A DNA stretch of 58,673 bases, filler included, from Jimgerdemannia flammicorona (Eukaryota): NCBI GenBank assembly GCA_003990765.1. It is 2 parts of 2 records of this genome, joined end to end, with 100 filler letters (N's around TTAATTAATTAA, not from the genome) between each part and the next. Parts side by side here need not be neighbours in the genome. Positions count along the whole stretch, not along the records: positions 29,392 to 58,673 come from RBNJ01000507.1; 1 more part is not named here. One strand, given 5' to 3'. The notes beneath the pieces were generated by a model. That model saw only the letters and a list, made by a program, of their open reading frames with translations. It did no database searches and was not told the origin of the DNA. Both the position numbers and the translations under genes were made by a program. The first letter of the stretch is position 1. Each line of letters opens with the position of its first letter. Shown here in pieces: positions 2,222-58,673 of this stretch.

Positions 2222-2570
2222 GTCCTTGGACTTCCTTTCTTTATTATGCCCATCTATCTCATATAAATACAGTGACCCCTCCTCCTATCCGATCCCCTTA
2301 GGGGGGCCCCCCACCCCTACCCCTTTCCAATGAAGTCATGTGATTCCTAATTCAGTTCGCCCCAAGTTGTGGTGCATCCTCCCTTTTGGGACATTGTATT
2401 TTGTATATAAGGACTGCGTTTTTATATAGCAATAAATGGCTGATGCAATTTCAGTTATGTTCTTTGTTCATCCCCCTTATACACACTCTTCCACATATCT
2501 TCCATTCGTTTTGACACTAGTTCTGGTTTCGCTCCCATGGCTCCTGCTGGGCCTTCTTCCTTCTCTGCTA
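1866..2570 (+). repeat. 5' pseudo-LTR of PLE family 1, interrupted by a LINE tail
   Basis: Direct repeat of 5710-6212 once 2149-2345 is removed. Confidence 0.85.
2149..2333 (-). mobile_element. Severely 5'-truncated LINE (3' UTR plus ~68-nt poly(A))
   Basis: Reverse complement resembles the LINE 3' end at about 17065-17190; 12-bp TSD AGTCAT(A/G)TGATT at 2137-2148 and 2334-2345. Confidence 0.9.
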
Positions 2571-13440: not shown

Positions 13441-13456
13441 CACACCATACTTCAAT

Positions 13457-23434: not shown

Positions 23435-23470
<36 letters not shown>

Positions 23471-23535
23471 TGAGAGAGATAGTAAGAAGAGGAATATCCT
23501 CCACTATGGCCATAAAAGCAGTAGGGGTCCTGTAA
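19695..23535 (-). mobile_element. Old, heavily AT-shifted copy of PLE family 1 (ORF1-RT-3' pLTR)
   Basis: Collinear with 2540-6212; RT ends ...STGED* at 20175; inverted-repeat arms kept at 20004-20018 and 20166-20180. Confidence 0.85.
23230..23468 (+). mobile_element. 5'-truncated LINE 3' end with poly(A)
   Basis: Similar to 16975-17190; TSD GTGAGAGAGA(C/T)AG at 23217-23229 and 23470-23482. Confidence 0.85.
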
Positions 23536-24979: not shown

Positions 24980-27900
24980 CTCAGTGAAGTTTCTGAAGGA
25001 TCTGGAGGGGGTTGAGGTGTGCTTTGAGGAGGCGGGCACATTGGATGAGGCACTGAAGACTGGACTCTATAGTGTGATGCTTGAGGTGGGACCCCAGGGT
25101 GGTGCAGTTACTGATGAAGGGGGTGCCTACAGTGATGAAGGAGGAGACAAGGAGGAGGGTGGAGGAAGTGATGGTGGAGTATGGTGATGTGGTTGATATC
25201 AGCGTCCAGATGTGGGAGGGGACCATCTTCAGGATGTGGGATGTGGATGTCAGGATTAGACTGGTGGGCAGGGAGGCCATGGGGAAGATGAGTGACTGGC
25301 CTTTGGTGTTGATGTGGGGGGCTTTTGTCCGCAAGGTTTCAAGGGTGAAAGGGAGTGAGGAGGAGGAGGAGGACTTGTTGGAGGCTCTGAAGGAGCTAAG
25401 TGGTGCTGTTGAGCAGAGGGTGAAGGCCTGGAAGTTGTATGTAGAGTCAACATATTTGGAGATTGTTGACAGGAAGTATATTCATACTGACAAGAGGCAG
25501 TGGGAGAGGGCTCAAGGGCACCGGCAGCAGAGGGAGCTGTTGGCAAGCATGGATGGAGGGGTGAAGATGACAGCTAGGGGTGCTGAGAAGTCTGGGGGCA
25601 TAGAGGTGAGTATCTGGGTGAGTAAGGGAGGAAGAGCCATAGAGGAGGGCCTGGAGGGAGCTGGGAAGGTACCTCACAAAGACCCTTTTGCTGATGGTAT
25701 ATTCAAAGTCTGGGAACCAGTTATTGGTAACACTCCCCCCACTGATCAGGTGGGGTCCAGCTGTAAGGGGTCAGACAGCAGAAGATGTGTTGATGAAGGG
25801 TGCTCAGCTGGTACACTTTGGGGTTCCTGATTTTATAAAAGGTGGGCAGGTGGTGGCAGTTGGCAAGGATGAGCTGGTGGATGTCTCAGAGGAGGGGTGG
25901 GATGAGACTACTAGTGTAGGGGCAGATACCGCAATGCTAGATATGGGAAGGCCAGGGACACCAGGAGGAAAGGAGGTGGGGAACCTACTGTAGATGAGCA
26001 AGATGATGGAAAACTTCATGGCTGAGGAGTTGGGAGAAGTGGACTTGTGTGTGATGCCCAAGGAGCATTAGGCATGGATTCTGTGTGGAGATGGGGTGGT
26101 GGGGACACTGAAGGCTAAGATACTTGTGATCTTCCTGGAGGAGGAGGGTTATGAAGTTGATAGGGAAAGGGAGGCAGAGTTGACAGTCGTTGCTGGTGAG
26201 TGAGCTGCCTACTGTTGGACAGAGTGTCATAGTTTACAACTCTGGTAGGAGGCATGCCTGGAATATCATGAGGATTTTGAGAAAAAAGAGGATGGGGAAA
26301 TGGCTGAACTTCTGAATGGGCTGGAGGTGCAGGTGGCAGAAGAGAGAGTACTGGCTGCTGAGCATTACTTGGACTTAGCACAAGAGGAGTTGAATGTGGA
26401 CTTGTAAAGGATGAGACTATTATTTAACATTATTCCTATAAACAGTACAACTAATATATTCTCTCTGAATGTGAATGGGTTACGAGGATCTGGGCAGCAT
26501 AAGAACATTTTTGCTTGGCTTAAGGGATTGGAGGCTGATCTCTTTCTACTACAGGATGGATGAGGAAGATCAGGTAGAGTGGACTAGAGAATGGGGAGGA
26601 GCTACTGCTTGGATTGGTAAAGTGGCAATTCTGGTGAAGAAGGGTAGAGAAGATTTGGGTGGAATCAAGAGCTGGGGTGACTGTTTGGTCTGGGGAGAGT
26701 GGCATTGACCTGGGTGGGAATCAGTGAGAGTTGGCTCCTGCTACTGCCCTGTGGTTAGGGGTGAGTGAATTGAGTGGATTAGGGATCTGTTGGAGGAGGA
26801 TATTTTCTTGGAGAAAGGTGTTGATGTTCTGGGAGGTAACTTTAATATGGTGCAGGATCTGCGGCTGGATAGAACTGATGGAGAGAGGAGTACAGGCAGG
26901 AGGAGTGGTGGTCTGGATAAGTGAGAGGAGGTGGAGAACCTTAGCTCCTTTAGAATGTGGTGACATGAGGATCTATACACACTGGGTGAATGGATTGGGT
27001 ACAAGGATTGACTGTATTCTGATGGCTGAATGTTGGGGTGCTGATGTTTAGAAGACTCTAGAGGTGGAGTAGTGCCCATGGTCTGATTACTGGGGCTATT
27101 GGGGCAGGAGCAGTTTGGGGGGAGTAGAGATGGACCCTGACATTGGTATCTTAACTCCTCCCTGCTGGCTGAGAAGGGGTTGTGGGACCCATGGGTGTAG
27201 GACATCCACATGAAGATCACAAACTGGATACATGAGGGTTCATCTATGGGTGTCTGTTGGATGAGATTGAAGGAAGCTGTGGGGGTTTATTGGAGAGGAG
27301 CTGGTAGGGAGGCTGGGAGGCAGAGAAGGAAGTGAGTAAGATGTACTTCTAATAGGCTAATTAGGTTGTAGATGGAATGGGCTGATTTACTTTCTTCTGA
27401 AGAGGTGGAGGATTGGAGGTTTGAGCAGGCGAAATTGGAGGTGGTGGAATTGCAACAGATTTTGAGAGAGGAGGAGGAGATTCATATGAAAGGAATGGCT
27501 GCCAGGCTAAAGTGGCAGGGGCTTGAGGAGGGAGAGAGGCCTACTCAGTACTTGTCTCAGCTCCTCCAAGCCAGGAGGGTGTGACATTGATGGGATGGGG
27601 TCCTTGATGCCAAGGGGGAAATGGGGGTACTGAAGGTGAGATGAAGGGGTCTTTGGAGTGAGGAGGAAGGGGGTACAGATGAAGAGGTGATTGGAGACAC
27701 ACTGGAGGAGTGGAAACTGCCATGAGTAGGGAGACTTGGTGACTTGATCACACCAGTCCAAGAGGAGGAGATCCAGAGAGTCCTTGTGGCAACTAAGCTT
27801 GGGACAGTACCAGGAGAGGATTGGTTACCTTGAGACTTCTGGAAGAAGATGGCAAAGGTCCCTGGAGTGTTAGGTGAGATGGCCACCCTCTGTGACTATG

Positions 27901-29291
27901 TTCTACTGAATGGCAAATGGGTTGGAGAGCAGGACTTGGGGCTGGTGGCCTTATTGTACAAGGACAAGGAGAGGTGGGAGGACTGGAAGAACTGGAGGCC
28001 AATCATGCTTCTGGATATGGACAGGAGGATAGTGACTAAGGTGATTGTTGTGAGGCTACAGAAGGTTGCCCAATAGGTGCTGGGTGAGGAGTAGTGGGGC
28101 TTTGTTAGAGACAGGCTTATCAGAGATGGGATTGCCTGAGTGCATGGAGTTATTGAAGGGGCCTGGGCCTGTGGACTGGATGGTAGACTGGTATTTTTGA
28201 ACCAGGAGAAGGCCTATGACCATGTTTGGTAGGTGTGGCTGAGTAAGGTACTGGATAGAATTGGTGTTCCCCTATAATTTTGAGCTTCTATATTGAATCT
28301 GTTGTCGGGTAGTAGGGTGGCACTGATGTGCAATGGTCACTGGGGTTTGGTATTTCCCTTGGGAAGAGGAGTTTCTCAGGGAGACCCACTGTCTCCTTTC
28401 CTTTATGCCCTTTTATTGGAACCTTTGATGGATAGGATACAATGGAAGATGGTAGGGTTCTCTTTATATAGTGTAGTGTGGAAGGTGGGGGCCTTTGTGG
28501 ATGATATGGTAGTTGGACTTGGATCAGTGGCAGACATTGAGGTACTTAAGAAGACAGTGGAATGGTATGAGGCACACTCTGGGGCAAAACTCAACTGAGA
28601 TAAGTATCAGACAATGGTGTTGTGAAATGGGCTAGTGGGAGGGGACATCATTGGAACAATTGTCCCTACAAGAGACGTGGTACAGTATCTGGGCATCTTC
28701 CTTTCTGTATATGGATCTGTCTTGCCATGAGTGTGGTGGGAGAGGAGGGTGGCCATTTGGGGGGAGGCTCTTAGAGGTTGGGGGGGTTGCCACATCTCCC
28801 TGGCAGGGTGGGTGTCGATTCTGAATGTCTACTAGTTCCCTATGTGGCCTATCACTTAGACTTCCCAGCTTGGGTGGTGAAGAGGCTGATGAAAATTGGA
28901 TTTGGGCAGAGAGGAGGTCCCAGATCAGTTGGGATACTCTTGTAATACTGGTGATTAGGAGAGGACTAGGCCTTGTGGATTTCCCTAAGCAGCTATACTG
29001 TCTGCAAGCTTGGTGGTTGAAAAGGGTTGTTGAACTGTAGGGAGGAGGTTGGGTGCCACTGATGCAAAAGGTGTGGGAGAAGAGATTCTCCCCTCATGGG
29101 TCCTCAGGGGATTTGCTCTCTCTGGTGGACTTGGATGGAAGCTGACAACTATGATATATGGGCTTCTGGTGGGGGGTGGTGGATGGAGTACACCAGATAG
29201 GCCTGTGCTGGTGGGGTGATAAGGGGGAGGTAGTGGGGTGCAGCTATATGGCGATGGGACAGACTGCTTCTGAGGGGTGTTCTGCTTTTTT
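24980..29291 (+). mobile_element. LINE copy, 5'-truncated within ORF1 and cut at the contig spacer
   Basis: Collinear with about 11970-16375; GVSQGDPLSP, AFVDD. Confidence 0.92.
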
Positions 29292-29391: not shown

Positions 29392-32300
29392 CACTCCTTC
29401 TCAATGGAAGACCACTTTGTTAGCCACCACCTCTACCCTCTGACCACTCTGGTTACAGATCCCTTCCACTAGATAGCGATATTGCCTACCCTGGGGACTC
29501 CAACCAACCCACTACCCAGTAAGAAGATCACCCATCAACTCCTCCCACCTCACCAACTTCTCCTGCAACTCTGTCTATTGCTCTTTCTCAAAAACAAATA
29601 ACCAATATCCAGCCAACCCTACCTACACTACAATTACCTACTCTATAGTGAGCCACCCATTGCCAACACCTCCCACTAGTCTAGATTCCTAATCCTCCCA
29701 GCAACCTTGCTCACCATCTAGTCTCCTTTCTATATCTAGCCTATACTCTATAGCTATCCAAAAGTCCCCCAACACCTCACACTCTCTCAGCCAATATTCT
29801 GACATCTGTATGAAGCCCCCAGCTTGCCCTGTATTATAACCCTCCTTACAATCCAATTGGCCACCATCCACCAGATGCCTAGTATGGAAATTCAGTATAA
29901 TATTCCTTCACAGCATTCACCACCACACTATTCAGATCTTGAGAGAAAGCGACTTTTGTATCTCAGCACTTTAGGCCCAGATTTCTGCCCAGTTCAATCC
30001 CCACCACCTGCCAACTACTTGGCCAAAGATCCTGGTGAAGTCTCTGCTAACACTCCACTCCATCACTAATATCAAACTCAGCAAGAGGAATCTCTCCTAG
30101 CGAGTCCCATTGCCATATAGCAGGGCCCCACATCTCTTCCCCCTCATTACTCTGCCAGCATAGGTCTATCTGGTGCACTCCATCCACCACCCCCCACCAA
30201 AGCCCTTATACCATAGCCATTGGCTTCCATTCAGCCCCACCAGAGAGAACAAGTCTCCTGAGAACTCCTAAGATGAGAACCTCATCTCTCACACCTTCTG
30301 CATCAGCATAACACAATCTTCTCCCCATAGTTCAACTGTCCTTTTCAACCACTAAGCTCACAGACAGTATAGCCTTCTAGAGAAATCTACAAGACCTAGG
30401 CCTCCCCTAACCACTGGCTCCACAAGGATATCCCAACTAATCTGTGATCTTCTTTCAGCCCAAATCCAATCCTAAGCCAGCTTCATCAGCCTCTTCACCA
30501 CCTAGGCTGGAAAGTCCAAGTGATATTCTATATACCATAGCTTGGGGAATCAGTACACATTCAGGATCATCACTTAATCTACCAGGGAGATGTGCTGACC
30601 CCCCCAATCTCTCAGAGTCTCTCCCCAAATAACTACCTTTCTCTCCCACCACATCTGTGGCAAGACTGATCTATATATAGAATGGAAGATATGAAGATAC
30701 TGCACCACCTCTCCTGTGGGGATAATTGTTCCAATGATATTCCTTCCCATCAACCCATTCCCCAACACCAATGTCTCACACTTATACCAGTTGAGTTTCA
30801 CCCCAGGGTATACCTCATACCATTCCACTGTGTCTGTAAGTGCCTTAACATCTGCCACTGATCTAAGGCCAACTACCATATCATCTATAAAGGCCCTCAC
30901 CTTCTATACTATACTATACACTGAGAGCCCAGCCACCTTCCAATGGGTCCTATCCATCAAAGGTTCTAGTGAAAGAGTATACAGAATAGGGGACAGTGGG
31001 TCTCCTTGAGGCAATCCTCTCTCCAAGGGAAACACCAAACCCCTGTGACTATTGCACATCAGTACTGCCCTACTGCCCTCCAACAAACTCAATATAAAGG
31101 CTCGAAACTGCAGTGGGACACCAATTCTATTCAATACCTTACCCAGCCATACCTACTGGACATGGTCATAGGCCTTCTCCTGGTCCAAAAAAACCAGCCT
31201 ACCATCTAGCCCACAGGCCTGAGCCTCTTCAATAATACTATGTACCCAGGCAGTTCCATCTCTGATAAGCCTACCTCCTATGAAACCCCCCAGCTTCTCA
31301 TCCAGTACCTATTGAGAGACCTTCTGCACCCTTGCAATAATTACTTTTGTCACCAACTTCCAGTCCATATCCAAAAGCATGATTGGCCTCCAATTCTTCC
31401 AGTCCTCTTGCCTGCCCTTATCTTTATATAATAAGGCCACCAACCCCAAGTCCTGCTCTCCAACCCACTCACCATATAGAAGAACATGATCACAGAGGGC
31501 AGCTATCTCTCCTAGTATTCCAGGGACCTTTTCTATCTTCTTCCAGAAGTTCCAAGATAGCTCATCCTCCCCAGATACTGTCCTAAGCTTAGTAGCTACA
31601 AGGACCCTCTAGATCTCCTCCTCTTAGACTAGTAAGATCAAGTCACCCAGACCCTCTATCTGCAGTGGTTCCCACTCCTCCAGTACATCTACAATTGCCT
31701 CAACATCTGTACCTCCTTCTTCCTCACTCCACAGACCATGCCATCCCTTCTTCAATACTCCTAATATCTGTTATATGCCATAGACCAAATTCCCCTTAGC
31801 ATAAAGACTCTATCCTACCAATATCACACCCTCCTAGCTTTAAGGAGCCTAGACAAGTATCTAGTAGGCCTCTCTCCCTCCTCCAACCCCTGCCACCATA
31901 GCCTGGCAGCCATCTCTTGTATATGAGTCTCCTCCTCCTCTTGCAATATCTGCTATAGTTCCACTACCTCCAATCTAGTCCTTTTAAACCTCCAATCCTC
32001 CACCTCATCAGAGTCTAGTAAATCAGCCCATTCCATCTGCAATCTTATCAGTCTATTAGAAGCACACTATATGCACTTCCTCCTCTATCTCTCAGCCTCT
32101 CTACCAGCTCCTCCTCAATAGGCCTTCACAGCCTCTTTCAACCTCATCCAATGGACATCTACAGACAGACCCTCACACCTCCAGAGAGGAACCTTCTCTT
32201 GAATGTCCTCCACCATGAGTCCTACAACCCCTTCTTAGCCAGCAGGGAGGAGTTAAGGCATCAATGTCAGGGTCTATCTCCACTCCCCCCAAACTGCCCC

Positions 32301-35105
32301 TGTCCTAACAGTCCCCAGTGATCAGACCATGGGTACTATACAACCTCCAAAGACTTCCAGACATCAGCACCCCAATATTTAGCTGTCAAAATCCAGTCAA
32401 TCCTTGTACCCAATCCATTCACCTAATGGGTGTAGACCCTGGTGTCACCCCACCATGTTCATCCCATATTACCCCAAGGAGCTAAGATTTTCCACCTCCT
32501 TCTATGCATCCAGACCACCACTTCTCCCATCAGTATTCCTCCTTCCATTAGTTCTATCTAGTTGTGGATCTCAAACCATATTAAAATCACCACCAAGAAC
32601 ATCAACACCTTCCTCCAAGAGAGTACCCACCTCCAGCAGCTTCTTAATCCATGCAATTCTCCCACCCCTAACTGCTGGGCAGTAGCAAGAGCCCATCCTC
32701 ACTGATTCCCACCCTGGCCTATACCATTCTCCCCAGATCAAGAAATCCCCCCAGTTCCTAATTCCCCCCAAATCCCCTCTACCCTTCTTCACCAGAATTG
32801 CCACTTTTTCAAACCAAGTAGTAGCCCTACCCCATTCCCTAGTCCATTCCACCCAATTATCCCCATCCTCACACCATACATTCTGCAGTAAAAAGAGATC
32901 AGCCTCCAATCTCTTGAGCTAAGTAAAAATGTTCTTACATTGCCCAGAACCCCATAGTCTATTCACATTTAGTGAGAAAATGTTAGTTATACTGTTTATA
33001 AGGAATACTGTTATATATCAAACTCATCCTCTACAAATCTGCATTCAAGTCCTCCCATATCAAATCCAAGACATATTCTGCAGCCAGTTCCCTTTGCTCA
33101 GCTTCCTGTGCCTCCAACCCCTCCAGAAGTTCAACCATTGCCCTATTCTATTTCTCCTCAAAGTCCTCATGATACTCCAGACAGGTCACCTGCCAGAGCT
33201 GTAAACCATGATACTCAGTCCAACAATAGGCAGCCTGTTCACCAGCAACATCCATTATCTTCCAGGAAGATTGTAAGAATCTCCCCCTTCAGCATCTCCT
33301 CCACTCCATCACCTCACAGAATCCTTGCCAAGTGCTCCTCAGGCATTACTCATAGGTCCACTTCTCCCAATGCCTCAGCCACCAGGTTATCTATCACCTT
33401 GCTTATCCACAGTAGGTTCCCCACCTCCTTCTCCCCAGGAGTCCCAGGCTGCCCTATATCCAGCATCATAGTATCAGCTCCTATACTGGCAGCCTCATCC
33501 CACTCCTCCTCTGAGATATCCACCAGCTCATCCTTACCAACTGCCACCACCTGGCCCTCTTTCACCACATCTGGGACCCCAAAGTGAACTCGCTGGGCTC
33601 CCTGCATCAGTATGTCCTCCACTGCTCCTTGCTTCCCAACTGGGCCCCTCCTAATAAGTGGGGGAGAGTGTCATCCAAATCCTGCTCCTAAACTTTGAAG
33701 GTACCATCAGCATATAGATCCTTGCCCAGTATCTTCCCAGCTCCTTCCTCATTCACCTCCACCTCCTCACCTCCTTTGCTAGCCCAGACACTGGCTTCCA
33801 CACCTCCAGTCTCCTCAGCTTCAGCCAACTTCGTCTTCTCCCCTCCTGTCATACTTGCTAACAGCTCCCTCTGCCTCCTGCATCCCTGGGCCTACTTCCA
33901 CTGTTTCCTGTCAGTACAGATATGTTTCCCATCCACAACCTCTAGGTGCATCAACTTCTCATACCTCTTCCAGGCCTTTGCCATTCTCTCTACAGCTCCA
34001 CTCAACTCCTCCAGAGCCTCCAACAAGTCCTTCTCCTCCTCTTCACTCTCTTTCACCCTTGATATCTTACAGATGAAGGCCCCCTACATCAGTACCAAGG
34101 GCCAGTCACTCATCTTCCCTGTGGCCTCCTTACCCACCAGCCAAATCCTGACATTGATATCACCTATCCTGAATGTTGTCTCCTCCCACACCTAAAAGCC
34201 AATGTCCAATACATCTCCATACTCCACCATCACCTCCTCCACTCTCCTCCTAGTCTCCTCCTTAGTCACTGTGGGCACTCCCCTCACTAGAAGCTGTACT
34301 ACCCTGGGGTCCAACCTCAAGCACCACACCATGGGGACCACCACCTCCCCAACTACTACTCCAGTCTTCAGGGTCTCATCCAGTGGACCTGCCTCCTCAA
34401 AGCCCATCTCAACCCCCTCCAGACCCTTCAAGAACTTCATGGAGGCCACCCCAGCCACTTGCTTCGAAATAAGCCCCAGGACTATCCTTGTCATCACCAC
34501 TAAGCCTTGGAAGCACAAGATAGCCACAAACTCTGAGATTGACTTCTTGAGTAATGGAGCCACTACAACTTCCATTACACCATCTGCCAGGTCTCCCTTC
34601 CACATTGGGAACTCCTGCCCTCCCTGGCCATCAGTCATTACATCTCTTTTATTCTCCTGATTCACTATCACACTTCTATCAGCAGTCCCACCACCACCCC
34701 CAGCAGCTACTCCACTTCCTCCACCTCCTACTGGCAAATGTCCAGCACCCCCAGCATCCCCAATCTTCTACTTCCCCTTCCCTCCTGCCTGTCCACTATC
34801 AGCTCCCATCAGCCAACCCCCAGTCCTCAGCATATCTGCAAAGCTTCTTCCCTGCTACCCTCCAGCCCCCCCACCAGCACTGCCTCTACTGCCCAAGCTG
34901 TCCTGCCCACTTGAGCCACCAAAAGACCCCATCTCTAGTATATAACCTCTCCTAACATACTGCCAGTTGAAGGCCCCAGGTCCACCTGACCTAGTATATA
35001 TGTCAGCTTGCTTGCTGATTGACATTGCCTTAATATCTCTCTCTAATAAATAATTTGAAAATATGTTGTAAAAGTGTGTATGTATAATATGAATTATAGC
35101 AGAGG
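29392..35105 (-). mobile_element. Near full-length LINE copy, 3' end cut by the spacer
   Basis: 5' UTR and ORF1 start (about 35025) match 11316-11470; GGDFN, GLPQGDPLSP, AFIDD. Confidence 0.92.
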
Positions 35106-39160: not shown

Positions 39161-39408
39161 TTTTTCACTTTCAATTACTCTAAATATTATAGAAATATTA
39201 TTCAAATTATTTCTTCAGGGTAAATTTTGGAGGGCCAAGTTCTCAGGTTCAGGGATTAGGTCTAGGGTTGAGTTCAGAAGTCAGGTTCAGGGTCAGATTA
39301 AAGACAGGTGATATACATTTCTGGGTTAGGTTAAAGATGAGTGATATATATTTTTGGCTTAGATTATAGATGGGTTATGTATAATTCTGAATCATGTTAA
39401 ATATATAT

Positions 39409-39892
39409 TGTAACATAGCAGATGCTTACTCTTGAAAGTACATTGGATTTCTGTATCTTGAAAACTTAACTGTTCTGACTCTCACAGAGTCTCTCAAAGT
39501 TGCAGAGGAGGGTGGGTGAGTTCGAAGTATATCTGCCCGCAGGCTTACTAGTTCCTTTGCTATCTCTTTTCTTTGAACTATTTCGATCTGAGGTTTATTC
39601 ACTCGAAGATACTGGGTTATTTATACAGTTTTGCTAGCTATAAGGTGGCTAAATTATGACTACGTTTTCAGTGAGTCAATTCCTACAAGTATAAATCCTT
39701 TACATTTGTTGAGATCTTTACAATTGTGAAATATTTTATATCTGTAGAATTTCTACAGTTGCTAAAGTTTCTACACTTGTGAAATATGACTGCTATTTAT
39801 AAGGCTATACTATATTGGGAATTAGGTTCAAGTACCACAATCAAATGTCTAATTCCCCTGTTTCATGTTACTAATTCGGATCAACCATCACA
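39409..39892 (-). repeat. 3' LTR of Ty3 family B
   Basis: Direct repeat of 45673-46156; preceded on the minus strand by the PPT CAGGAGGAAGT. Confidence 0.95.
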
Positions 39893-40002
39893 ACTTCCTC
39901 CTGAATAGGTGATTCATCCCTGAAGTATCCTATTCACTCAAACTCCCAGGCTTCTACAATTTGTATCTCCTTGTACTGTGTGATCTGCACTATTACATTC
40001 TT

Positions 40003-40299
40003 TCAATATTGTCTCCTGATTTGTCCGAAATCCCCTAGAATTACTTCACGGAGATGAGCTAAAGCTGGTTTGTCATCTTTGAACAATTTGTGTACTCTCT
40101 TGGCAATCATGATCTGAGTGTAGGAGAGCTGACATTCTTTGATCCAGTCTTCTTTTCCCATCCTTGGATTTGAATTCAGTAGTTGTCCTAGCTTGAAGTA
40201 CTCCTGGAACTCAGTTCGCGTCTGGTAGGTCTTGAAGTGTGAAATTCGTGACAGGTGGGTCTGGACTATACACTGTATACTATCAAAGGGTTCCTCCAT
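40003..40299 (-). CDS. Extra 3' ORF (ORF3) of Ty3 family B, unknown function; probably ran further before mutation
   Basis: 98-aa ATG-initiated ORF between integrase and PPT; homologous to 17641-18059. Confidence 0.75.
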   Translation of the reverse strand: MEEPFDSIQCIVQTHLSRISHFKTYQTRTEFQEYFKLGQLLNSNPRMGKEDWIKECQLSYTQIMIAKRVHKLFKDDKPALAHLREVILGDFGQIRRQY

Positions 40300-40364
40300 T
40301 GTTGGTGGTTCAGTAGAATACCACTGTCTCTCTATGGCTTGTTGGGCAGCAGTGATCTTGAGGG

Positions 40365-41575
40365 CAGCTGCATTACTTCATTGGCTGGTCATAGTACTTC
40401 TTGAGTCTGTTTCAGTGGATGGTGGTGTGGATGATTGTACCTGAGGTTTTTTGTAGCCAAAAGGTGGTCTCTTTTATATCTTGCACAAGGTAAGGTCCTT
40501 CCCACTTGGGCTCCAATTTTCGTGACCATGAAGCTTCTACCATATTCCGATACACCAGGACTTTGTCTCCTATCTTGATAATCTCCAAGGGCTTGTGGGT
40601 CTTTTCCACATTCCTCTGTTGTAGTATCTGTGCCTTGGTTATGTAATCCTCAGCCTTCTTCCTGATTTGGTGTAGTCTCCGTATTTCCATATCCACATGT
40701 TTCCATACAGTGTCTCTATTGGATGATAGGGTTCCTTGAGGATATTCTTCTCCAAACAGCATTTCTCAAGGGATAAATTGGGTACTTTGTGATCGGATAT
40801 CTCGGAGAGCAGATAATACTATTGGCAGATAGTAATCCCAGTTTTCATAGTTATCACAGATCTTGGCGATAACATTCTTGAGAGTCTTGTTTGTTCTTTC
40901 CGCTTATCCATTTCCTTGAGGGTGATAGGCAGTAGTCCGAATATGTTGGATCTTGTATTTTTTGTAGAGAATCTCAAAGAACTGGTTCACAAATTCTGTT
41001 CCTCTATCTGTGGTTACTTGCATTGGGGTCTTGAATTGGCAGATGATTTCTTTGTGGAAGAAATCGGCAATTGACTGTGCATTAGCTTCCTTGAGGGGTC
41101 CTGCCTCTATCCATTTTGTGAATAGATCCACAATGACAATGATATATCGGTTGCCAGTCAATGTCAGGGGTAGTGGGCTGATTATATCCATTGCTATATG
41201 GGCAAAGGGTACTGGTTCTATGTGTGCTGATCCTGGGGCTTGATTTTGTTGGTCTTGTTTCTGTTTCTGGCATTTGTCACATGTTCTGACAAATTGTCTG
41301 ATATCTTCCTCCATCCCTGGCCACCATATTGTTCTTCTTGCCTTGTCATATATATTTGTTCCTCCTAGATGACTAAGTTCATATACTGATTTCATTGCTT
41401 GCTCCTTCTTGTGTTCTGGTATGACTAGTAGTTTTCCTTTCTTCAGTGTTTCTCCATCGGTTTTGAATTGTTTCCATGTTCTGTTGATAATTGTTTGCAT
41501 CCATTGTTCCAGATGTTGGGGCATCTTTCGCTGTCCCAGGTATGTGATAATCCCATAGTAGAGGTCTTTATTCAT
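40365..41575 (-). pseudogene. Integrase of Ty3 family B
   Basis: H...WWPGM...CDKCQ, AMDIISPLP, VDLFTKW, TDRGTEF, YHPQGNG, EPKWEGPY. Confidence 0.93.
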
Positions 41576-41582
41576 GGTGATT

Positions 41583-43010
41583 TTATTGGAGTGGGGTCCT
41601 TCGGGGTGTCTGTGAGAGGGTATCTGCATTGGCATTGGTTCTTCTAGAGCGATGTACGATGGTTACATCATAAGCTTGCAACTTCATTATCCATCTGGCA
41701 TAGATTCCTTTGGGTTGTCCAGTTGTCAGTAGCCAGGTGAGAGCTGAGTGGTCCGTTTGGATGGTGAAGTGCCTTCCCGCCAAGTAGTAGTGGAACTTTT
41801 CTATGGCCCAGATGACTGTGAGGCATTTCAACTTGTAGGATTCATATTCTTTTTCAGCTCCTCATGTTCCGCAGCTGAGGTAAGTGATGACATACTCCAC
41901 TTTGTCTTTCTTTTGAGCTAGGACTGCTCCTAGTCCTTGTATGCTTGCATCAGTCTGTAGGATGAACTCTTGAGTCCAGTCAGGTCTTCTGAGGATGGGT
42001 GCCTGGATTAGTCTAACCTTGAGTTCATCAAATGCTTTTTGTTGTCTGCCAGTCCACTGGAACTTGGTATCCTTCTTGTTAAGTTCGTAGATTGGTCCCG
42101 CAATATTAGAAAATCCTCTAATAAATCTGCAATAATAGGAGGCAAGTCCCATGAAGGCTTGGGCTTCTGTAACAGTGGTGGGTCTTGGGTATGCTGCCAC
42201 TGCTTGTATCTTGAGGGGGTCCATGTGTGTTCCATCTCAGTTAATGATGTGGCCAAGATAGGAGATCTCGATTTCTGTAAACTTGCACTTCTTGGGTTTG
42301 ATGTAAAGGTCATGTTGTCTTAGTCTCTCTATTATCTGCTGTATGTACTGCAGATGTTCCTCAGGTGTCTTGCTGTAGATGATTACATCATCGACATAGA
42401 CCATCATCCATCTTCCCATATTATAGCAGAAGATTTTGTTCATCATTCACTGGAAGCTTACTGGTGCATTGTACATTCCAAATGGCATTCATAGGTAGAC
42501 ATAGGTTCCGTCTGGAGTGATGAAAGCTGACTTTTCACTTGCCATATCTGTGAGTCCGATTTGGTGGAATCCTGAGTATAAGTCCAAGGTGCTGTAGTAT
42601 TTTGCTTCATCTCCCAGTATTATGAAGATGTCATTGATAAGGGGCAGTGGTTGGCAATCCTTCTTGGTAACCATGTTGAGTTTTCTGTAGTTGACACAGA
42701 GTCTTGGGGCGAATTCTCCAGGCTTGCTACCTTTTTTCGGGGCCAGTATGATGGGTGAGGACCAGGGGCTGCTGGCTTCTTTGATGATGCCAGCTTCTTC
42801 CATCTGCTTGATTTCTTCACTGAGCCATTCTTGGTAGGCTGGTGGGATGGGTCTTGCCTTCTGATAAATTGGTTCTGTGTCTCCAGTATCTACTTCATGG
42901 TAGTAGTGTGGGGTCTTCCCTTTGATATCCTTGAAATCCGTGACAAGGACATCCTTGAATTTGGAGTATTTTCTTGAGTTCCTCTTTGAGTGGGAATTCA
43001 TCTCCAATGG
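41583..43010 (-). pseudogene. RT and RNase H of Ty3 family B
   Basis: SPWSSP, NYRKLN, LDLYSGFHQI, MPFG, YVDD, YLGH, TDAS..GLGAVL, TDHSAL. Confidence 0.95.
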
Positions 43011-43087
43011 TGTAACTGTGCTTGCTTGTGTTTTCCTCCTTCTTATGCTCGAGTTTAGTGATTTTGGTGCTGGCGAATACTCCTCTT

Positions 43088-43500
43088 CCTGTGGATCCGA
43101 ATCCTTTCTTTCCTCTTTTCGTTTCCTCCAGATTCTTGACTTCTATGATCCTTGGCTATATGATTGGGAAGATCAGCATTTGTACCAATCGGTCCTTTTT
43201 TTTGACTGGGAATGGAATTGTAGGATTGTGATTCCTAGCAATGAGCAGAATTTCTCCAGTATAGTCTGAATCAATGACTCCTCCTTCAATAGTAATTTCA
43301 CTTCTGGCCAGGCTGCTTCTTGTCTTGAGAATCCCGATATGATCCTTTGGGATGGTAATCTCTAGTCCAGTTGCGAGTAGAGTGGTTGTCTGGGGTTCCA
43401 GTACAGTCTCTTCTACTGTAGCGATGTCCATTCTGGCTGCATTTTCTGACTTGTATTCTGGCAAGACTGCATCAGGGTGGATCTTTTGAATCTTGACCTT
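43088..43500 (-). pseudogene. dUTPase domain of Ty3 family B
   Basis: AARMD, TGL, RSSLA, GGVIDSDYTGE, DRLVQ, RGKKGFGSTG. Confidence 0.92.
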
Positions 43501-43849
43501 GCTTTCTTCTTCATCATCACTGTCCTCCAGAAGGGCTGGTGGTTTGTCATCTTCCTCCTTCTCTTCTTCCCTGATCTGTTTTTTGAGAGCTTTCTGCCTT
43601 CTTTCCTGGTAGATCTTCTTGGTTCCAATGGTGCACTGGTAGCAATCATTGACATGCTCCATACAGTACATCTTGATTCCATGAGGACAGACTCCTTGTG
43701 GGGCATAGCTCTCTGCAATCTTCTTGCACCATTCTTCTTCACTCATCCATCCAACTTTCTTCTTTTTTGGGATGGTCACCACATAAGCTTCCTCTTGCTC
43801 ACTCTCTTCTTCTTCTATATCGGGCAGAATTCCTTTGTTGACATTGATG

Positions 43850-45558
43850 GGAATTCGTATCTTCTGTCCCCGGTAGATGATCTGCATCCTCTGAGCATTG
43901 AGATCGATTACTGCCTTGGCTTTGTGAAGCCATTGATTGCTGATGAGGATGTCATAGTTGGTAGCATTGGTTATGATTACATCTACTGAGATTGTTGCTC
44001 CTCCAATCTTGATGGGAATATCCCAGATCTTTCCCAGAGGTGTGGCTCTTATGCCATCAGCTGTGATGAATACTAGCTTAGTTGCTTCTTCCACATCTCA
44101 ATCTAGGTGGTCTGCTGCCTTCTTGCTGAGGAGACATCCTCCTGCTCCTATATCAATGATGGCTTCAAAGATTCTATCTTTGATTTGGCATGTTGCATAA
44201 GCAGAGGTTTTGCGATTATCCTCGCTTTCTTCTCCTGAGTCCTCTTGAACATTATTGGCCTCAGTTATCTTCCATCCTTGTTCCTTGGTTGTTTCAGCGA
44301 GTCCAAACCTCATTTGCTGTCTAAATGTTGGGATTTCTGCGAGCTGACCAAAGGTTGCATTGACCTTTTGTTGACTGAGATCCTTGAAGATATCATACTT
44401 GAAGGTCTTGGTCTTGCGAAGCTTCTTTTCTTTTTCTCCTTCACTGGCTGGAGTGGTTCCTTGGATGATATCTTGAACTGCTTGCTCCAGCTCTATATCT
44501 TTGTCCATCTCTTCAGCTTGGCTCTCTGTGGCAGTTTCCATCTGCTTTTCCACTGGGTTCTTCTTGGGTCTTCTTGGCAGTCTCTTGTAGGATTCTTTGT
44601 GAGCGTCCTTCTTAGTGGTCTGAGCAGGATAGGCCTCCCATTCCTCTTCATCAGATTCTCCAATCTCCTCAAAGGTAATTGTATTGGCCTGCTCCTTGTT
44701 TCATGCAGCATTGCTTGGTTGAGCCTTGTGCTTGGTTTCACTCATGCATTCATAGGAGTAGTGGCCTTCTTCTTCGCAAGTATAGCAGGTACCTTTCTTC
44801 TTGTCTGAGGTGGTGGCGAACTTCTGCACAGGACAGCAGTCTCTTCCTCGAATTTCCTTTACCACATCTCCCAGGTGGGCAGTCATTTCAGCAAATCTTT
44901 TTGCGAGTTCCTCCATAGGGTCGCTGTTCTTCTGCTGCTCTGTAGCTTTTGGCTGAGGTGTGTTCCGATTGATCATTGTGATAGGGATCACACTGGTTGC
45001 CTTGGGTGCCTCAATTCTGACTCCTGTGACCCTTTCCATTGTATGGTCTTGTGGATGTCTGGCTATCCAGTATCGCTGAGCATAGGTGACCTTCTGTGGC
45101 AGATCCAGAATCACTGGTGATGAGCGGATGGCCATGGCTATTTCTGGATAGACTCCTTTCATGAAGGTTGCTTTGGCTACTTGATCTAGGATAGCAGCAG
45201 CATAATCTGCAAGGATTATCTGATATCGAATTCTGGTATAGAATGTATTTGGATCCTCGCTTATTCCTTGGCATGTTGTATTGAGCTGATCCTTCAGGGC
45301 TTGATTGATCTCATCTGTGTAATATGTATTTTGGAGCCAGGTCTTCTGTGCTGTCAGTATAGCATCGGTATCATTTCCTGCATTGGTTGCGGCTGTGAAT
45401 GCTGCTCTGGCAGGGCCTCGTAGCCTGAAGGGCATAAGGGCTACTTGCTGTGCTGCTGTCAGGGTTCTTACAGCAGCATACTGCTCGAAATCATCGATGA
45501 AGGTGATGATTGATTCATCTGAGGTATATCTGTGGAATACTGGTGGTCTCATATCCAT
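43850..45558 (-). pseudogene. Gag (zinc knuckle) and protease of Ty3 family B
   Basis: CQG..E...FY.R capsid motif, CYTCEEEGHYSYEC, AIIDIGAG, YDILISNQWL. Confidence 0.9.
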
Positions 45559-45657
45559 CTTGTCTGGGTATTGGGGCTCAGTTGGTATGATTGTTTGGGT
45601 AGTAGTGGTTGTTCATTGTTCAGCTTGAAAGTGAGGAATTCATCTTGAATCACCAGC

Positions 45658-45670
45658 CAATGGGCACCAA
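45658..45670 (-). promoter_or_regulatory. Primer-binding site of Ty3 family B
   Basis: TGGTGCCCATTGG lies just inside the 5' LTR; the tRNA cannot be assigned by eye. Confidence 0.6.
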
Positions 45671-45672
45671 GT

Positions 45673-46156
45673 TGTAACATAGCAGACGCTTACTCTTGAA
45701 AGTATGTCAGATTTCTGTATCTTGAAAACTTGACTGTTCTGACTCTTGCAGAGTCTCTTGAAGTTGCAGGGGAGGGTGGGTGAGTTCAAAGTGTATCTGC
45801 CTGCAGGCTTACTAGTTTCTTTGCTATCTCTTTTCTTTGAACTATTTTGATCTGAGGTTTATTCACTCGAAGATACTGGGTTATTTATACAGTTTTGCTA
45901 GCTATAAGGTGGCTAAATTATGACTACGTTTCCTGTGAGTCAATTTCTACAAGTGTAAATCCTTTACATTTGTTGAGATCTTTACAATCATGAAATATTT
46001 TATATCTGTAGAATTTCTATGGTTGCTAAAGTTTCTACACTTGTAAAATATGACTGCTATTTATAAGGCTATACTATATCGGGAATTGGGTTCAGGTACC
46101 ACGATCAAATGTCTAATTCTCCTGTTTCATGTTACTAATTCGGATCAACCATCACA
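45673..46156 (-). repeat. 5' LTR of Ty3 family B
   Basis: 484 bp, TG...CA. Confidence 0.95.
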
Positions 46157-46188
46157 ATATATGGATTAGTTCAGATTACAGAGCACTA

Positions 46189-54420: not shown

Positions 54421-56486
54421 AGCTGCAATCTCAGACTACTAGTAATACTGTACAAAACTCTCCCAAAACTTCACACTCTCTTAGCCAATGTTCAGGTATT
54501 TGTACCACTCCCCCCTCTTGAGTAATGTCTATGCATTCCTTATACTCAAACATACTATCTACTACCAAGTGCTCTGACCAATAGTTGAGTATCACATTCT
54601 GCCTAAGAAATCTCCACCATATTACTCAGAACTTGTAGAGAAGCCACTACATCACCTTCTTGCTCTAAAGTCAAATACTATTCTAGTCCCACTCCTTACC
54701 AATCTCTACTCTTTACTATACTTTAGGCCATATGTCCCCCCCAAGTCTCTACATAAATTCTATTCCATTATTAAGCTGAAAATCCTCTACCAATATATCT
54801 TCCAGCAGTAGCTGGGACTAGCTCTACATCTGTGGTCCACAGTCCTCCTCTCCCTTATCACCCCTCTACTGAAGTCTAATTCATCTTGCACTATTTACCA
54901 CTCCCTACCAAAAACCTTTGTAACATATCCTCTTGCTCTCATTTATGACCACCATTGCAAGCAGGTCACCAGTCACTCTACAAGGAGAGTACCAGACTTC
55001 CCACACCCTCTGTATAAGTGGTACCCTCTTCCAGACTCTTAAATCACTCACTTTCTTCAACCACTATACTCTTAGGCAATAGATGCTTGGTAAAGTCAAC
55101 TAAGCCCAGTCTGCCTCTATTGACAGACAAAGTCAGAATCTTCCAGCCTATCTGACTTCACTGTTCAGTCCAAATCTATGATCTCACCATCTTCAGAAGT
55201 CACCTGACCACTCATGCTGGGATATCCAGTGATACCCCACATACATATCACAGCTTTGGCAGCCAATTTACATTCAGCACCATCACTCTTCCTACCAAGG
55301 ATATATGCTGACCACTACATCTCAAGAGAATATTCCCCCTACTAGTAGCTGCTGTTCCCACCATATATATAGCAGAAGGGACCCATATGCTAAAAAGTAG
55401 ATCCCCAAGTACTGAACTAGTTCTTCTGCTGGAACCTTATTCCAATCATATTACTGCCAACTATTCTGCCACCTAGCATCAGAGTCTCACATTTGTACCA
55501 GTTGAGCTTAACATCTGAGCCCCTCTCATACCATTCCAAAGTCCTTCTTAATTTCTCTACATTCTCTAATAAACTCAGTCTAACTACTATGTCATTTGCA
55601 AAAGCCCCCACCTTCCTGTTAATTCCCAAAATATTGAAACCCCTAATTCAATACCAGATCCTGTCCAATAGGAGCTCTAAGTAAAGGGTATATAAGATGG
55701 ATAATAAAGGATCTCCTGGTGGTACTCCACAACCTAGCAGAAAAGTCACACTCTTGTACCCATTCACTACCAATACTGCTTGACTGTTTTCCAATAGACT
55801 GATTAATGATCTTCTATACTCTGGGAGAACTTCTACATATTTCAGCACTCCCTTCAAACCCTCCTCACTGTATTATATGCCTTCTCCTGATCCTGAAACA
55901 CTAACTGGCCATTAACTCTAGCTGCCTAGGCCTCTTCAATCACCTTATAAACCCAGGCAGTTCTATCTCAGATCAACTTTTTTTTTTTATTATAAAACGA
56001 GTAGATAATAGTGGAAGAGTTTAGAGCGAGATGTGATACTGTTACGGCGGATATGAAGGTCAGCGGTAAAAGGTCAAGCAGTTATAAAAAGCTTATGTGA
56101 ATTTTCACAACGGAACAGAAAGTGGAATAAAGTGTTTTCCGAAGCAAGGTGCAATTGATCTGCAACCCGCCCTCAGCACCGCAATGTACGGTGGTCTTTA
56201 TTCAATTTGAGAAACAAAGTTCAGGTAAACAAAGACACGGATCTAACCCCAGAATTCCGGAATCGGATAGGTGCATAAGTACCCGGACCTTGCCCCGATC
56301 CAAACAAAGGTCTGAATCGGGCTTCGTCAATCTATACACATGACAGGCCATTAAAAACCCGATATAGTAACAATCGGGAAAAGGTACCGGTCACGTGATC
56401 TAATGTTACACATAACATAAACAATGCCAAAAAACGGAACTAGACCAATGACGCAATATGTGTCATCACGTGATTGTCACTTATAG

Positions 56487-56686
56487 GTTTAAAAACCTAA
56501 AAATTATCGGCACCCGAAGGCGCAGGCATCAGGCCTAGAGCCTCGCGACCAGAGCGGAGTAGAGCCTCAGCACTGGAGCGAGCGAAGCGAGCGGAGGTAG
56601 ACAGGCATCACGGAGCGTAGGTACGCAGGCATCAGGCTTAGAGCCTCGCGCCGGAGGTTGTCCGGCGATTTTTCGCATTTTTAAAC
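56487..56686. repeat. Inverted-repeat-bounded GC-rich module with a 27-bp direct repeat
   Basis: Arms at 56487-56510 and 56662-56686; CGCAGGCATCAGGC(C/T)TAGAGCCTCGCG at 56521 and 56624. Confidence 0.8.
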
Positions 56687-56716
56687 ATCGCACGGCACAT
56701 ACAAGTGGTGCGGCCT

Positions 56717-58673
56717 TCAAGGAGGACTTATAGCGAAGCTGGTGTTTGAGATGGCATTAAGAATGGTAAAACCATTCTTCCGGGCGATGATTGGTCGTCG
56801 GGCAGTCGCAGGGAAACCAAAATGAAGCAAAGCGGTATGTAGAGTCTTGTCGGGTTGTTGATGTAGCCATCGGGCCATGTCATATTGGATGACAAGCGAC
56901 GGGGGAGGAAAAGCGGAGTGGGGAATGGGGGGGTGGGAAATAAGAGGAGGGGTGAGAAGTGAAGTTCGGACCTCAAGCCAATCAACCAAACTCAATTGAG
57001 TGGTTACAATATCAACAGGGTATCCTTTCCTGTGAATCAGGAAGTCGGCCAGAGACCGATACTCATCAAGCCAATCACGGCGAGAAGAGCAGAGTAGCGA
57101 AAGGCGGCGGGCCTCATTCACAATATATAGACGAAGTGTCTTCCTAGGATGATTGCTCAACCAGTCAACAAACTGAGTACTACGCAGGAACTTGACAAAA
57201 CGGCCTGTGCAGAACGGTGTGACTCAGATTTCCAGGTCTAAGTAATGGCACAGTCTGGTGGATAAGACTTCCCATTCGATACGATGGTGCGGAGGGTACA
57301 TAGCAGCAAAGATCGAGGCCAAGTCCATAATCGCAGGCGTAAAGATAATAAGATCATCAATATATCGGCGGAACTTTAGCTCAGCAATGATGGCTCAGCT
57401 AAGCAGATGATCGGGCGTTTGCAAGGTGTGCAACTCATGAGCAAAACCAACAAGATTGGCAAGATCCAGAGTACAGTTAGTGCCCATAGCAATACCAGTC
57501 ACAGAGCGGAAGGAACCGATGGCAGATGTAAATGTCGTATGAGTCATGACTATGCAGACAAGGCCGAGAACGGCTTCAAGCGGCAAAGAGCCAGGGGGGA
57601 AGGCCACCGTCAACAAGAAGGTGAGGCAGTCGATGCACTCATCTAATGTGATCCTGGTGTAGAAGGCGGCGAAATCTCCAGTAGCGACGTATAAGCAATC
57701 TGACACATCAAGGTAATCCGATCAAACCAATTGAAGCAGTTCAAGTATATCATGCAGAGGTGAATAATGGGAATAACCCACATTATGGCGCAGATGGGCC
57801 AACCACAGATGGAGAAAGCGAGATAGAAAACGTGAAATCTCGGTCGTGGGAGAGTTAAACGCTCCAACGATAGGGCGCCATGCCACGCGAGCCCCTTTGT
57901 GTACCTTGGGCAGAGCATGAAACACAGGTAGCTTACAATCATTGGGCTCCATGAGGTGTTCCCAAATCGGTATACAATTATGATTGCCGATGCAGAACTC
58001 GAGTAGACCAAGAAGGTCTAGCCTCACTGATTCCTTAATGTTATCAATCGTAGAGGGATCATTCACATACGCAGGATCGTGAAGGAGGGACCGAAGACCA
58101 TCAAGATAAAGAGCATGCAGTATAACGGCAAACCCCAGATTCTTGTCGGTAAGACAGACAGTGAAGTCATCATGAGTACGGATGCCTTTAAGAAGGCAGC
58201 GGAACTTCTTTGGTACAAGCGCACCAGACACATTCGTCGTGGGTCGGACAGCTTGATTTAAGGCAGCACTCATATGGAGTATAATTTGCATATTTTCCAT
58301 ACAGTGCGGCAGTCGCCATTTAGATGGCACCCAGGTGGAGATCTCCGGGACATTGTCAGGATCGGGTCACTCCATCCTTTCACCGGTAACATTCAGGTGA
58401 CACAAGATTTGGACAACACTTTCTGCGAAGTTTTTGGTGAAAAGCTACTATCAACATGGCGAGCAACGAGCATTCTGGTGGGCATGGCGGCCAGGGGGGC
58501 AGCAGTGCCTTCGGCTGGCAGCAGGTCGGGAGGAAAAGAGGAGATGGTCTGGGGATGCCAGGGCCGTCGGTGGTTGGAGGTGGCGCTGGGGGTGGGGGAA
58601 GAGGCGGACTGAGGCAGCGAGGTGGGGGGAGGACGACCTTTGCTGACAAGGTCAGGATGGGGAAGATGGCAGC
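56717..58673 (-). pseudogene. Penelope-type RT of family 2 (few TGA stops; no C-terminal GIY-YIG)
   Basis: TDKNLG, LPKVHK, WRPIVG, GDFAAFYTRI, GIAMG, RYIDD, YLDL, EARRL...KGYP; the ORF stops at 56717. Confidence 0.92.

Follow-up and report, generated by a model that had tools for sequence, protein, structure and literature searches.

A split inverted repeat carrying the stop codon of Penelope-like elements in Jimgerdemannia flammicorona, and its possible part in complementary DNA joining

The stretch of DNA analysed here, to which we refer as the window, comprises 58,673 nucleotides from Jimgerdemannia flammicorona (GenBank assembly GCA_003990765.1), namely two parts of two records joined by 100 filler letters, of which positions 29,392 to 58,673 come from RBNJ01000507.1. 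Close to its end, on the minus strand, lies the reverse transcriptase (RT) open reading frame (ORF) of a Penelope-like element, and just downstream of the RT a 200-bp stretch, 56487 to 56686, bounded by an inverted repeat with TTAAAAA and TTTTTAA at the core of its arms. We call this stretch the module and the element family 2, in order to distinguish it from a second, divergent set of Penelope-like copies in the same window, family 1, which carries modules of its own. The central observation of this study is that in family 1 the junction between a direct and an inverted copy coincides, base for base, with an inverted repeat that has been kept complementary in these two divergent families. An earlier interpretation, made from the sequence alone and called the sequence-only reading below, had instead placed the emphasis on a cluster of CGNAG motifs between the arms.

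The coordinates of all features are collected in Table 1. Using the family 2 RT as the query, an exhaustive profile search returned 2278 relatives at E up to 0.001, the best of which is 44% identical, and the closest named relative, from the fungus Racocetra fulgida, is 34% identical. Pfam RVT_1 is matched by 11 of the 18 relatives that were scanned (E up to 0.001), and the window's own RT protein stays below detection by this model at E up to 0.1. As for the endonuclease, no GIY-YIG domain is present among the same 18 relatives, nor was one found in any ORF piece of family 1 or family 2 (E up to 0.1-1), the N-terminus of family 2 lying beyond the window. The DKN motif has been named as a hallmark of Penelope-like elements (PMC13159263), and the combination of this motif with an RT that lacks an endonuclease is how the literature defines the endonuclease-deficient members of the group (PMC13159263, PMC8557442). 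With its DKN motif and thumb region, and with no endonuclease, family 2 is, judged by its sequence, an endonuclease-deficient Penelope-like element. In this it resembles the Coprina/Athena elements, which are likewise described as having a DKN-motif RT, a thumb region, no endonuclease domain and flanking direct repeats (PMC8557442, PMC13159263), a relation that is drawn here by these features. What sets the present elements apart from Coprina/Athena is their interstitial location in DNA rich in transposable elements, the presence of an inverted copy, and the fact that neither a hammerhead nor TTAGGG-type telomere repeats were found. In particular, no CCCTAA dimer occurs at up to one mismatch anywhere in the window, in a scan that covers the common TTAGGG type only. 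Outside the window, a word search of sequencing runs returned one soil-metagenome DNA run with 5% of the words and no RNA run, and in the contigs of that run parts of the family 2 element recur at 83-95% identity, none of them extending over 56365-56643.

The arms of the family 2 module, with their imperfect extensions, and the 27-bp direct repeat between them are real, as the sequence-only reading had it. The same reading placed the module 30 nt after the RT stop, which is right for the first in-frame TGA past the RT domain, the frame then continuing to a TAA inside the 5' arm. This TGA aligns with a Ser of family 1, whose own ORF continues to the arm, and the family 1 C-terminus can be aligned through the family 2 stretch between the TGA and the arm. 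The interior is built as a series of short internal duplications, 21-22-nt units at a 24-nt spacing and the 27-nt pair at a 103-nt spacing, and it carries all nine of the plus-strand CGNAG motifs. By analogy with family 1, the roughly 500 nt beyond the module would be the remainder of the family 2 pseudo-long terminal repeat (pLTR). The observed-to-expected (o/e) ratio of CpG is 1.0-1.2 in this 3' region as compared with 0.6-0.9 in the ORF. What is more, there is a sharp CpG boundary at about 55990, from an o/e of 0 in the flank (55400-55990) to 0.6-1.2 in the family 2 element (55990-58673), which marks the end of the family 2 insertion and shows this copy to be much younger than almost everything else in the window.

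Table 1. Positions of the Penelope-like features and of the neighbouring Ty3-type element, counted along the window
Feature	Position	Strand	Remarks
Family 2 Penelope-like RT ORF	56684-58672	-	TDKNLG, LPKVHK, WRPIVGA, GIAMGTN and RYIDD motifs; runs into window end
First in-frame TGA after the RT domain	56717-56719	-	30 nt before the module
Family 2 5' arm core	56678-56686	-	GTTTAAAAA (sense); contains TAA 56681-56683, the next in-frame stop
Family 2 5' arm inner extension	56660-56677	-	imperfect; TGCGAAAAATCGCCGGAC (sense); AAAAAT pairs with ATTTTT of the other extension; read directly
Interior between arm cores	56496-56677	-	182 nt; GC 0.62; 19 CpG; sense strand 58% pyrimidine
Direct repeat, copy 1	56521-56547	+	27 nt
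Direct repeat, copy 2	56624-56650	+	26/27 identical to copy 1
Family 2 3' arm core	56487-56495	-	TTTTTAAAC (sense); inner extension reaches about 56511
TATAAG, candidate TATA box	56480-56485	-	one base past the 3' arm on the sense strand; read directly
Rest of family 2 3' region	55987-56486	-	about 500 nt; ends in an A-run adjoining the CpG-free flank
Family 1 module at ORF end	5710-5892	+	arms 5710-5725 and 5877-5892, 16/16 complementary, 151 nt between
Family 1 module, upstream pLTR	1866-2051	+	arms 1866-1881 and 2036-2051, 16/16 complementary
Module of third, heavily mutated family 1 copy	20003-20181	-	arms 20166-20181 and 20003-20018, 15/16 complementary, 147 nt between
Inverted partial family 1 copy	6-1881	-	begins with 3' arm sequence; 16 nt (1866-1881) common with direct pLTR
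Family 1 3' pLTR	5710-6216	+	module, spacer, first 134 nt of ORF sequence
Ty3-type long terminal repeat retrotransposon	39408-46157	-	gag zinc knuckle, protease, dUTPase, RT, integrase

Family 1 carries a module in the same place and of the same size, arms and polarity, as had been claimed. Its ORF (2436-5716, plus strand) ends with a TAA at 5714-5716 that lies inside the 5' arm, and two further copies of the module, at 1866-2051 and 20003-20181, were unlisted in the sequence-only reading. The RTs of the two families are 38-50% identical (about 40%), and the interiors of their modules cannot be aligned with each other, although they are of similar length and both rich in pyrimidines on the sense strand. 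Homology between them at the level of primary sequence was considered and rejected, local alignment being no better than shuffles for two of the three copies (for the third, P = 0.05). What both families keep are the arms, their position at the stop codon and the spacing, with 150-180 nt enclosed. Beyond the common TTAAAAA core, each family has complementary extensions of its own, ACATCC/GGATGT in family 1 and AAAAAT/ATTTTT in family 2. Such pairs of arms are rare in the window: TTAAAAA followed by TTTTTAA within 80-330 nt occurs four times in its 58.7 kb (5713, 1869, 20006 and 56489), the plus strand having 9 TTAAAAA and 6 TTTTTAA in all, and perfect 12-mer inverted repeats with a loop of 100-250 nt are found only in the family 1 modules and at one other site, block shuffles giving 0.67. 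All four pairs, which represent three insertions and two families, lie at the ends of Penelope-like ORFs or at the starts of pLTRs. Finally, of the five G-C pairs in the arms of the third family 1 copy, two are now A-T, both bases having changed, and no pair has changed in one base only (P about 0.012 at a transition rate of 0.31). Given the kept complementarity and these double changes, the pairing of the arms appears to be selected, or else templated. An outer 10-bp helix of family 1 (5700-5709 with 5973-5982) was dropped as a candidate, its partner being deleted in the third copy.

The layout of family 1 follows from a comparison of this family with itself. Direct matches join 5710-5995 to 1866-2151 (85%) and 5981-6216 to 2334-2569 (88%), defining a pLTR pair at 1866-2569 and 5710-6216 in partial tandem, and inverted matches join 2334-4103 to 1777-6 (87%) and 5877-6216 to 1881-1542 (88.5%). 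In other words, family 1 shows the classic layout of Penelope, in which an inverted copy adjoins a partial tandem. Its pLTR opens with the 5' arm, whose first base lies four bases ahead of the stop codon, and has the module as its first 183 bp. With the inverted copy reaching as far as 1881 and the direct pLTR beginning at 1866, the two have, in this one case, exactly the 16-nt arm in common. All of these repeats are 85-92% alike and equally diverged, which fits formation in one event and about one age. At the other end, two independent copies of family 1 (6216 and about 19733) stop at the same point, 134 nt into the ORF sequence of the following unit. The second of these is the third copy (19733-23540, minus strand), a single unit in which transitions affect 31% of G/C sites on both strands, leaving a GC content of about 0.32. 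The pattern resembles that of repeat-induced point mutation, or else of heavy deamination, and is much weaker in the adjacent family 1 copies. A poor alignment of degraded sequence places the 5' end of this third copy about 32 nt past the 3' arm.

Starting from what is observed, that is, the anatomy of the module, its conservation, the identity of the family 1 stretch as the opening of the pLTR and the junction at the arm, we infer which nucleic acid pairs and when. Namely, we read the 200-bp stretch as the first approximately 200 bp of the pLTR of an endonuclease-less Penelope-like element, with the arms as its functional core, which would pair to prime a junction in complementary DNA (cDNA); this is a tentative reading, which we favour with some hesitation and would not yet call probable. 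It would start from a split inverted repeat, in which the A-run arm carrying the stop codon and the T-run arm some 150-180 nt downstream can pair with each other. First-strand cDNA copied through the 5' arm would acquire a 3' end complementary to the copy of the 3' arm, and it would meet the latter either 150 nt back on the same cDNA, by folding back, or on another cDNA whose priming took place at the opposite end of the DNA. Since two first-strand cDNAs have the same polarity, they could anneal only at an internal inverted repeat. Fold-back or annealing at the arm would then prime further synthesis and lead to the head-to-head 5' junction that is typical of Penelope insertions. The extension product would consist, in this order, of the reverse complement of tail and ORF, then arm, interior, arm, tail and ORF, and this is the order present at 6-4103. 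More speculatively, priming from both ends of a break, with joining at the repeat, would account for an interstitial location without an endonuclease. The interior, which is CpG-rich, fast-evolving and growing by duplication, would lie just upstream of the probable transcription start and be U3-like. A stronger form of this reading, in which the module is a dedicated cDNA-joining element of an endonuclease-less and hammerhead-less Penelope-like lineage, such that the cDNAs from two break ends anneal or one of them snaps back and primes the second strand, seems to us rather unlikely.

The closest precedent is found in the endonuclease-bearing Penelope elements of Adineta vaga, Pen2, Pen2a and Pen3a (Arkhipova, Yushenova and Rodriguez 2013, PMC3846280). 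Palindromes of 18 bp and 38 bp are described there at the 5' end of the pLTR, the inverted and the direct pLTR overlap by 15 bp, and the authors consider the palindromes at inverted junctions to be best read as self-priming (PMC3846280). In both systems, therefore, an inverted repeat stands at the very start of the pLTR, the overlap equals the arm of the repeat (15 bp there and 16 bp here), and the pLTR takes in the first codons of the ORF. The differences are that the palindrome of 18-38 bp is contiguous in Adineta vaga and split by a loop of 150-180 nt here, that the 5' arm here carries the stop codon of the ORF, and that neither a GIY-YIG domain nor a hammerhead was found here. The proposal in the sequence-only reading of a candidate new cis-acting system goes too far in this respect: a palindrome at the 5' end of a Penelope pLTR, read as self-priming, is already published (PMC3846280), and it is the form split by a loop and anchored at a stop codon that is a new variant. 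A literature search for inverted repeats or hairpins that are anchored at the stop codon of Penelope-like elements returned only PMC3846280, with the supplements of PMC8557442, PMC4209133 and PMC11167929 being the places that may still bear on novelty. The same Adineta vaga paper states that endonuclease-deficient elements of protists and fungi are without this organisation (PMC3846280). Contrary to that statement, the direct-plus-inverted arrangement of pLTRs is present here in an element without endonuclease or hammerhead, inside a chromosome arm.

In publications of 2021 and 2024, the steps by which Penelope-like elements come to have tandem and inverted copies are said not to be understood (PMC8557442, PMC11167929). 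If true, a cDNA-joining element would explain, at the level of sequence, how the so far unexplained inverted repeats of Penelope insertions come about, and it would also open a route by which endonuclease-less elements could insert inside chromosomes. The one Penelope-like element studied in vitro is Poseidon of Anolis carolinensis (Frangieh et al. 2024, PMC11167929). Its purified protein is reported to cleave and extend both DNA strands, to bind within the first 172 nt of the next unit's ORF, to start reverse transcription 111-118 nt inside that ORF and to prefer as its target the AT-rich junction between ORF and pLTR (PMC11167929). Poseidon shares with the elements studied here the partial tandem with pLTRs, the AT-rich ORF-pLTR junction and an insertion end inside the start of the next ORF, at 111-118 nt there and at 134 nt in family 1 (PMC11167929). 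It differs in having an endonuclease and a hammerhead across the pLTR-ORF junction, and we found no inverted repeat described at its ORF-pLTR junction, where families 1 and 2 have one (PMC11167929). Taking together the internal start in Poseidon and the family 1 terminus at +134, recognition by the RT is probably not at the module. A role of the split repeat in cDNA joining would be open to testing in the existing in vitro assay.

That said, several points weigh against the reading of the arms as a site of cDNA priming. The evidence base consists of one junction, three insertions and one window. In particular, there is only one head-to-head junction, and it belongs to family 1, the 5' end of family 2 lying beyond the window. 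This junction could have arisen, with no selected function, wherever a short inverted repeat allowed host repair or a template switch during replication, in which case the locus would be an ordinary pLTR start with a CpG-rich promoter region. Host inverted duplications at short repeats do resemble what we see, in that a far larger inverted duplication comes to surround a short inverted repeat, whose spacer stays behind as the asymmetric loop. They are, however, chromosomal replication or repair events. In the present case the arms of the palindrome are as old as the pair of pLTRs (85-92% alike), as would fit if both had formed at insertion. What is more, the perfect arm core of family 2 amounts to only 9 A/T-rich bp plus one G-C, the minimum-energy RNA fold of family 2 leaves its arms unpaired with each other, and the sequence, whose arms contain no G-U pairs, fits RNA or DNA pairing equally well. 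The argument from compensatory changes concerns one copy, at P about 0.01, and the 5' end of the third copy, coming from a poor alignment, is weak evidence for placing the transcription start. Four distant RT relatives (L001 to L004, 24-25% identity) show no module at their stop codons, and the feature is therefore clade-specific; three of these loci came from a metagenome scan (24-25%) and one from a scan of genome contigs (25%), a scan of viral contigs for RT relatives having found none. Finally, an account centred on the arms leaves part of the CGNAG excess unexplained, and a weak motif preference common to both families is conceivable.

Could the module be a promoter and nothing else? In this alternative, it would be a U3-like promoter or enhancer, whose interior contains tandem-duplicated factor sites, whose arms act as TATA-like or boundary sequences, and whose junction in family 1 is an accident of microhomology. 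The placement of the module bears on this idea. Two separate family 1 copies have, in their 5' untranslated regions, the same short antisense retroposon of the poly(A) type, whose tail counts from 33 to about 70 A (2152-2333, with a flanking 14-nt direct repeat, and 23385-23468), and neither 3' pLTR has it. It must therefore have been carried along by retrotransposition of a master copy, and the family 1 transcript has to start between the arm and the site of the retroposon. Together with the beginning of the single-unit third copy and with the TATAAG one base past the family 2 arm, this puts the module upstream of the transcript start, in a U3-like position, and, if such a placement holds, the sequence would let the module enter the RNA only after the ORF. 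The promoter role itself we infer, and it is further suggested by the higher CpG ratio of the 3' region, by the internal duplications with their regular spacings and by a CGNAG excess that survives the collapse of repeats and is partly common to family 1; the pLTRs of other Penelope elements are likewise reported to carry a promoter (PMC8557442, PMC3846280). Promoter function alone, however, leaves unexplained both the complementarity of the arms, with its family-specific extensions and double changes, and the presence of the stop codon inside the 5' arm in both families, and we consider it unlikely as the whole explanation. As a separate observation, just past the family 2 module a hairpin of about 110 nt has at its base two CACGTG palindromes (ATCACGTGAT and ATCACGTGAC; 56381-56493, minus strand), and these may serve, in what would be the promoter region, as factor sites of the E-box type.

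Yet another possibility is that the arms act in the sense RNA, as a 3' untranslated region structure whose long-range helix sequesters the stop codon and thereby affects termination, cis-preference, RNA stability, or a processing step that replaces the hammerhead. The stop codon does lie within the helix in family 1, and possibly in family 2, the minimum-energy fold of the family 1 module forms the 16-bp helix, and one hairpin of family 2 has a C(UUCG)G tetraloop. As sense RNA, the family 2 module folds better than its shuffles (z = -3.2, with none of 200 shuffles folding as well), and so does the RNA of the whole family 2 3' region (z = -4.3). Set against this, the antisense RNA folds at least as well (z = -4.15), the DNA of the plus strand reaches z = -3.1, the family 1 module attains a z of only -1.9, and, as noted above, the arms do not find each other in the family 2 fold. 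Searches for known structures returned nothing in favour either. Namely, there are no Rfam matches at gathering score in the whole window, and, at E up to 10, the regions 56000-57000 and 5500-6400 have only three matches each, all at chance level, with neither a hammerhead nor a selenocysteine insertion sequence (SECIS) among them. A relaxed descriptor of the hammerhead core plus helix II likewise matched nowhere on either strand of the three pLTR regions, in agreement with the sequence-only reading, which saw no hammerhead. An attempt to thread the module onto a hepatitis delta virus-like (HDV-like) fold was rejected by eye, the helix being 16 bp and not 7. In the literature, Naiads and most Chlamys are the only reported exceptions to the rule that the pLTRs of earlier Penelope-like clades have hammerheads (PMC4209133, PMC8557442), and in Poseidon the RT both binds and starts within the ORF of the following unit, a long way from where the module would be (PMC11167929). 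All in all, an action of this structure in the sense RNA strikes us as distinctly unlikely, and the pairing of cDNA arms remains the reading we prefer.

Hairpins formed by d(GCGAAGC) are exceptionally stable, and mini-hairpins of the d(GCGNAGC) type occur in the origins of single-stranded DNA phages. With these in mind, the sequence-only reading took the CGNAG motifs of family 2 to form mini-hairpins on the first-strand cDNA, for second-strand priming, cDNA protection or integration. Its count stands: within 56487-56686, nine CGNAG motifs (56515, 56521, 56555, 56583, 56592, 56611, 56616, 56624 and 56652) lie on the plus strand and none on the minus strand, the plus strand being antisense to the RT, and they include one exact GCGAAGC (56582-56588) and a CCGAAGG (56514-56520). 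The expectation of roughly one motif was too low for a stretch this rich in CpG, dinucleotide-preserving shuffles of the 200 nt giving 2.43 ± 1.39. None of 5000 such shuffles reaches nine (for the 156-nt core alone, one of 5000 reaches the count), and in a look-elsewhere control, covering 256 XYNZW patterns on both strands, none of 300 shuffles does so, the maximum being 8. The enrichment thus survives local shuffling. Moreover, if second copies of the internal repeats are removed, the 153 nt that are left still contain five motifs as compared with 1.71 ± 1.17 (P = 0.018), the family 1 module has three, on the antisense strand only, where 0.59 are expected (P = 0.006 in one copy), and YRNAG, a form of the motif that allows for CpG decay, is in roughly two-fold excess in all three family 1 copies.

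It is the hairpins themselves that find little support. Complementary flanks are present in only three of the nine motifs (56515, 56583 and 56652), about 2.2 being expected from composition, and the other six lack the second base pair that a two-base-pair mini-hairpin needs, which sets them apart from the phage-origin type. The positions of the motifs are not conserved between the families, at least three of the nine are second copies within internal duplications, the family 2 ORF shows the same strand bias (12 versus 4), and the plus-strand DNA folds no better than either RNA strand. Words that contain CpG are locally common because the element is young. We take the excess to have arisen as a side effect of duplication, of strand skew and of the richness in CpG, although the motifs may instead form a cluster of factor sites; the mini-hairpins, and with them a role like that in single-stranded DNA origins, are not supported, and we hold them to be very improbable. 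Of the broader suggestion that the module acts at the level of single-stranded DNA or cDNA, what stands is the part that can be transferred to the arms, for which it is plausible, the family 1 copies overlapping by exactly one arm, and not the part that concerns the CGNAG hairpins.

Two further explanations have to be weighed, both of which we judge to be highly improbable. The first is that the module is an independent foldback insertion, similar to a miniature inverted-repeat transposable element. Its terminal inverted repeats do contain TTAA, yet two families whose interiors are unrelated have the module at the same position, the complementarity extends past the TTAA, the stop codon is part of the arm, and there is no solo copy away from Penelope-like elements among the four in the window. 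The second is that the module is a SECIS serving the in-frame TGA codons of the family 2 ORF, which lie at 58367, 57722, 57395, 57224 and 56717. The RT frame from 58366 to 56684 has 561 codons without a frameshift, and these include four in-frame TGA and no TAA or TAG. In soil-metagenome contigs that are 83-92% alike, two of the TGA codons (57722 and 56717) are unchanged, the contig over 56717 being 92% alike, and among Penelope-like elements the Naiads are described as encoding selenoproteins, with a SECIS 1-21 nt after the stop (PMC8557442). On the other hand, beyond the negative Rfam result at E up to 10, our own relaxed scan for the core plus helix (not SECISearch3) returned no candidates on either strand of either family, and the residues opposite the TGA codons in the alignment are Asn, Ser and others but not Cys, on which grounds we rejected the SECIS and selenoprotein interpretation. 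A recoding of TGA was rejected as well, having only TGA stops being unremarkable given the composition, with 35 TGA as compared with 21 TAA plus TAG out of frame. Finally, the neighbouring Ty3-type element also has several in-frame TGA codons, at positions that we take to be conserved Arg residues of its RT family, and these would fit CGA-to-TGA decay in a CpG-methylating genome.

As for the wider setting, the window is eukaryotic DNA, dense in transposable elements and strongly depleted of CpG (o/e 0.17). The two terminal repeats of the Ty3-type element (39408-39893 and 45672-46157) are 93.8% alike, and a copia-type element is also present. In addition, a repeat unit of about 5 kb with an extreme GC skew of about ±0.5 occurs three times (11815-16880, 24985-29260 and 30104-34598), with 66-76% identity between copies. 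Its ORFs have no Pfam match and no similarity to Penelope-like RTs, and two of its copies form a large palindrome around 29.2-30.1 kb.

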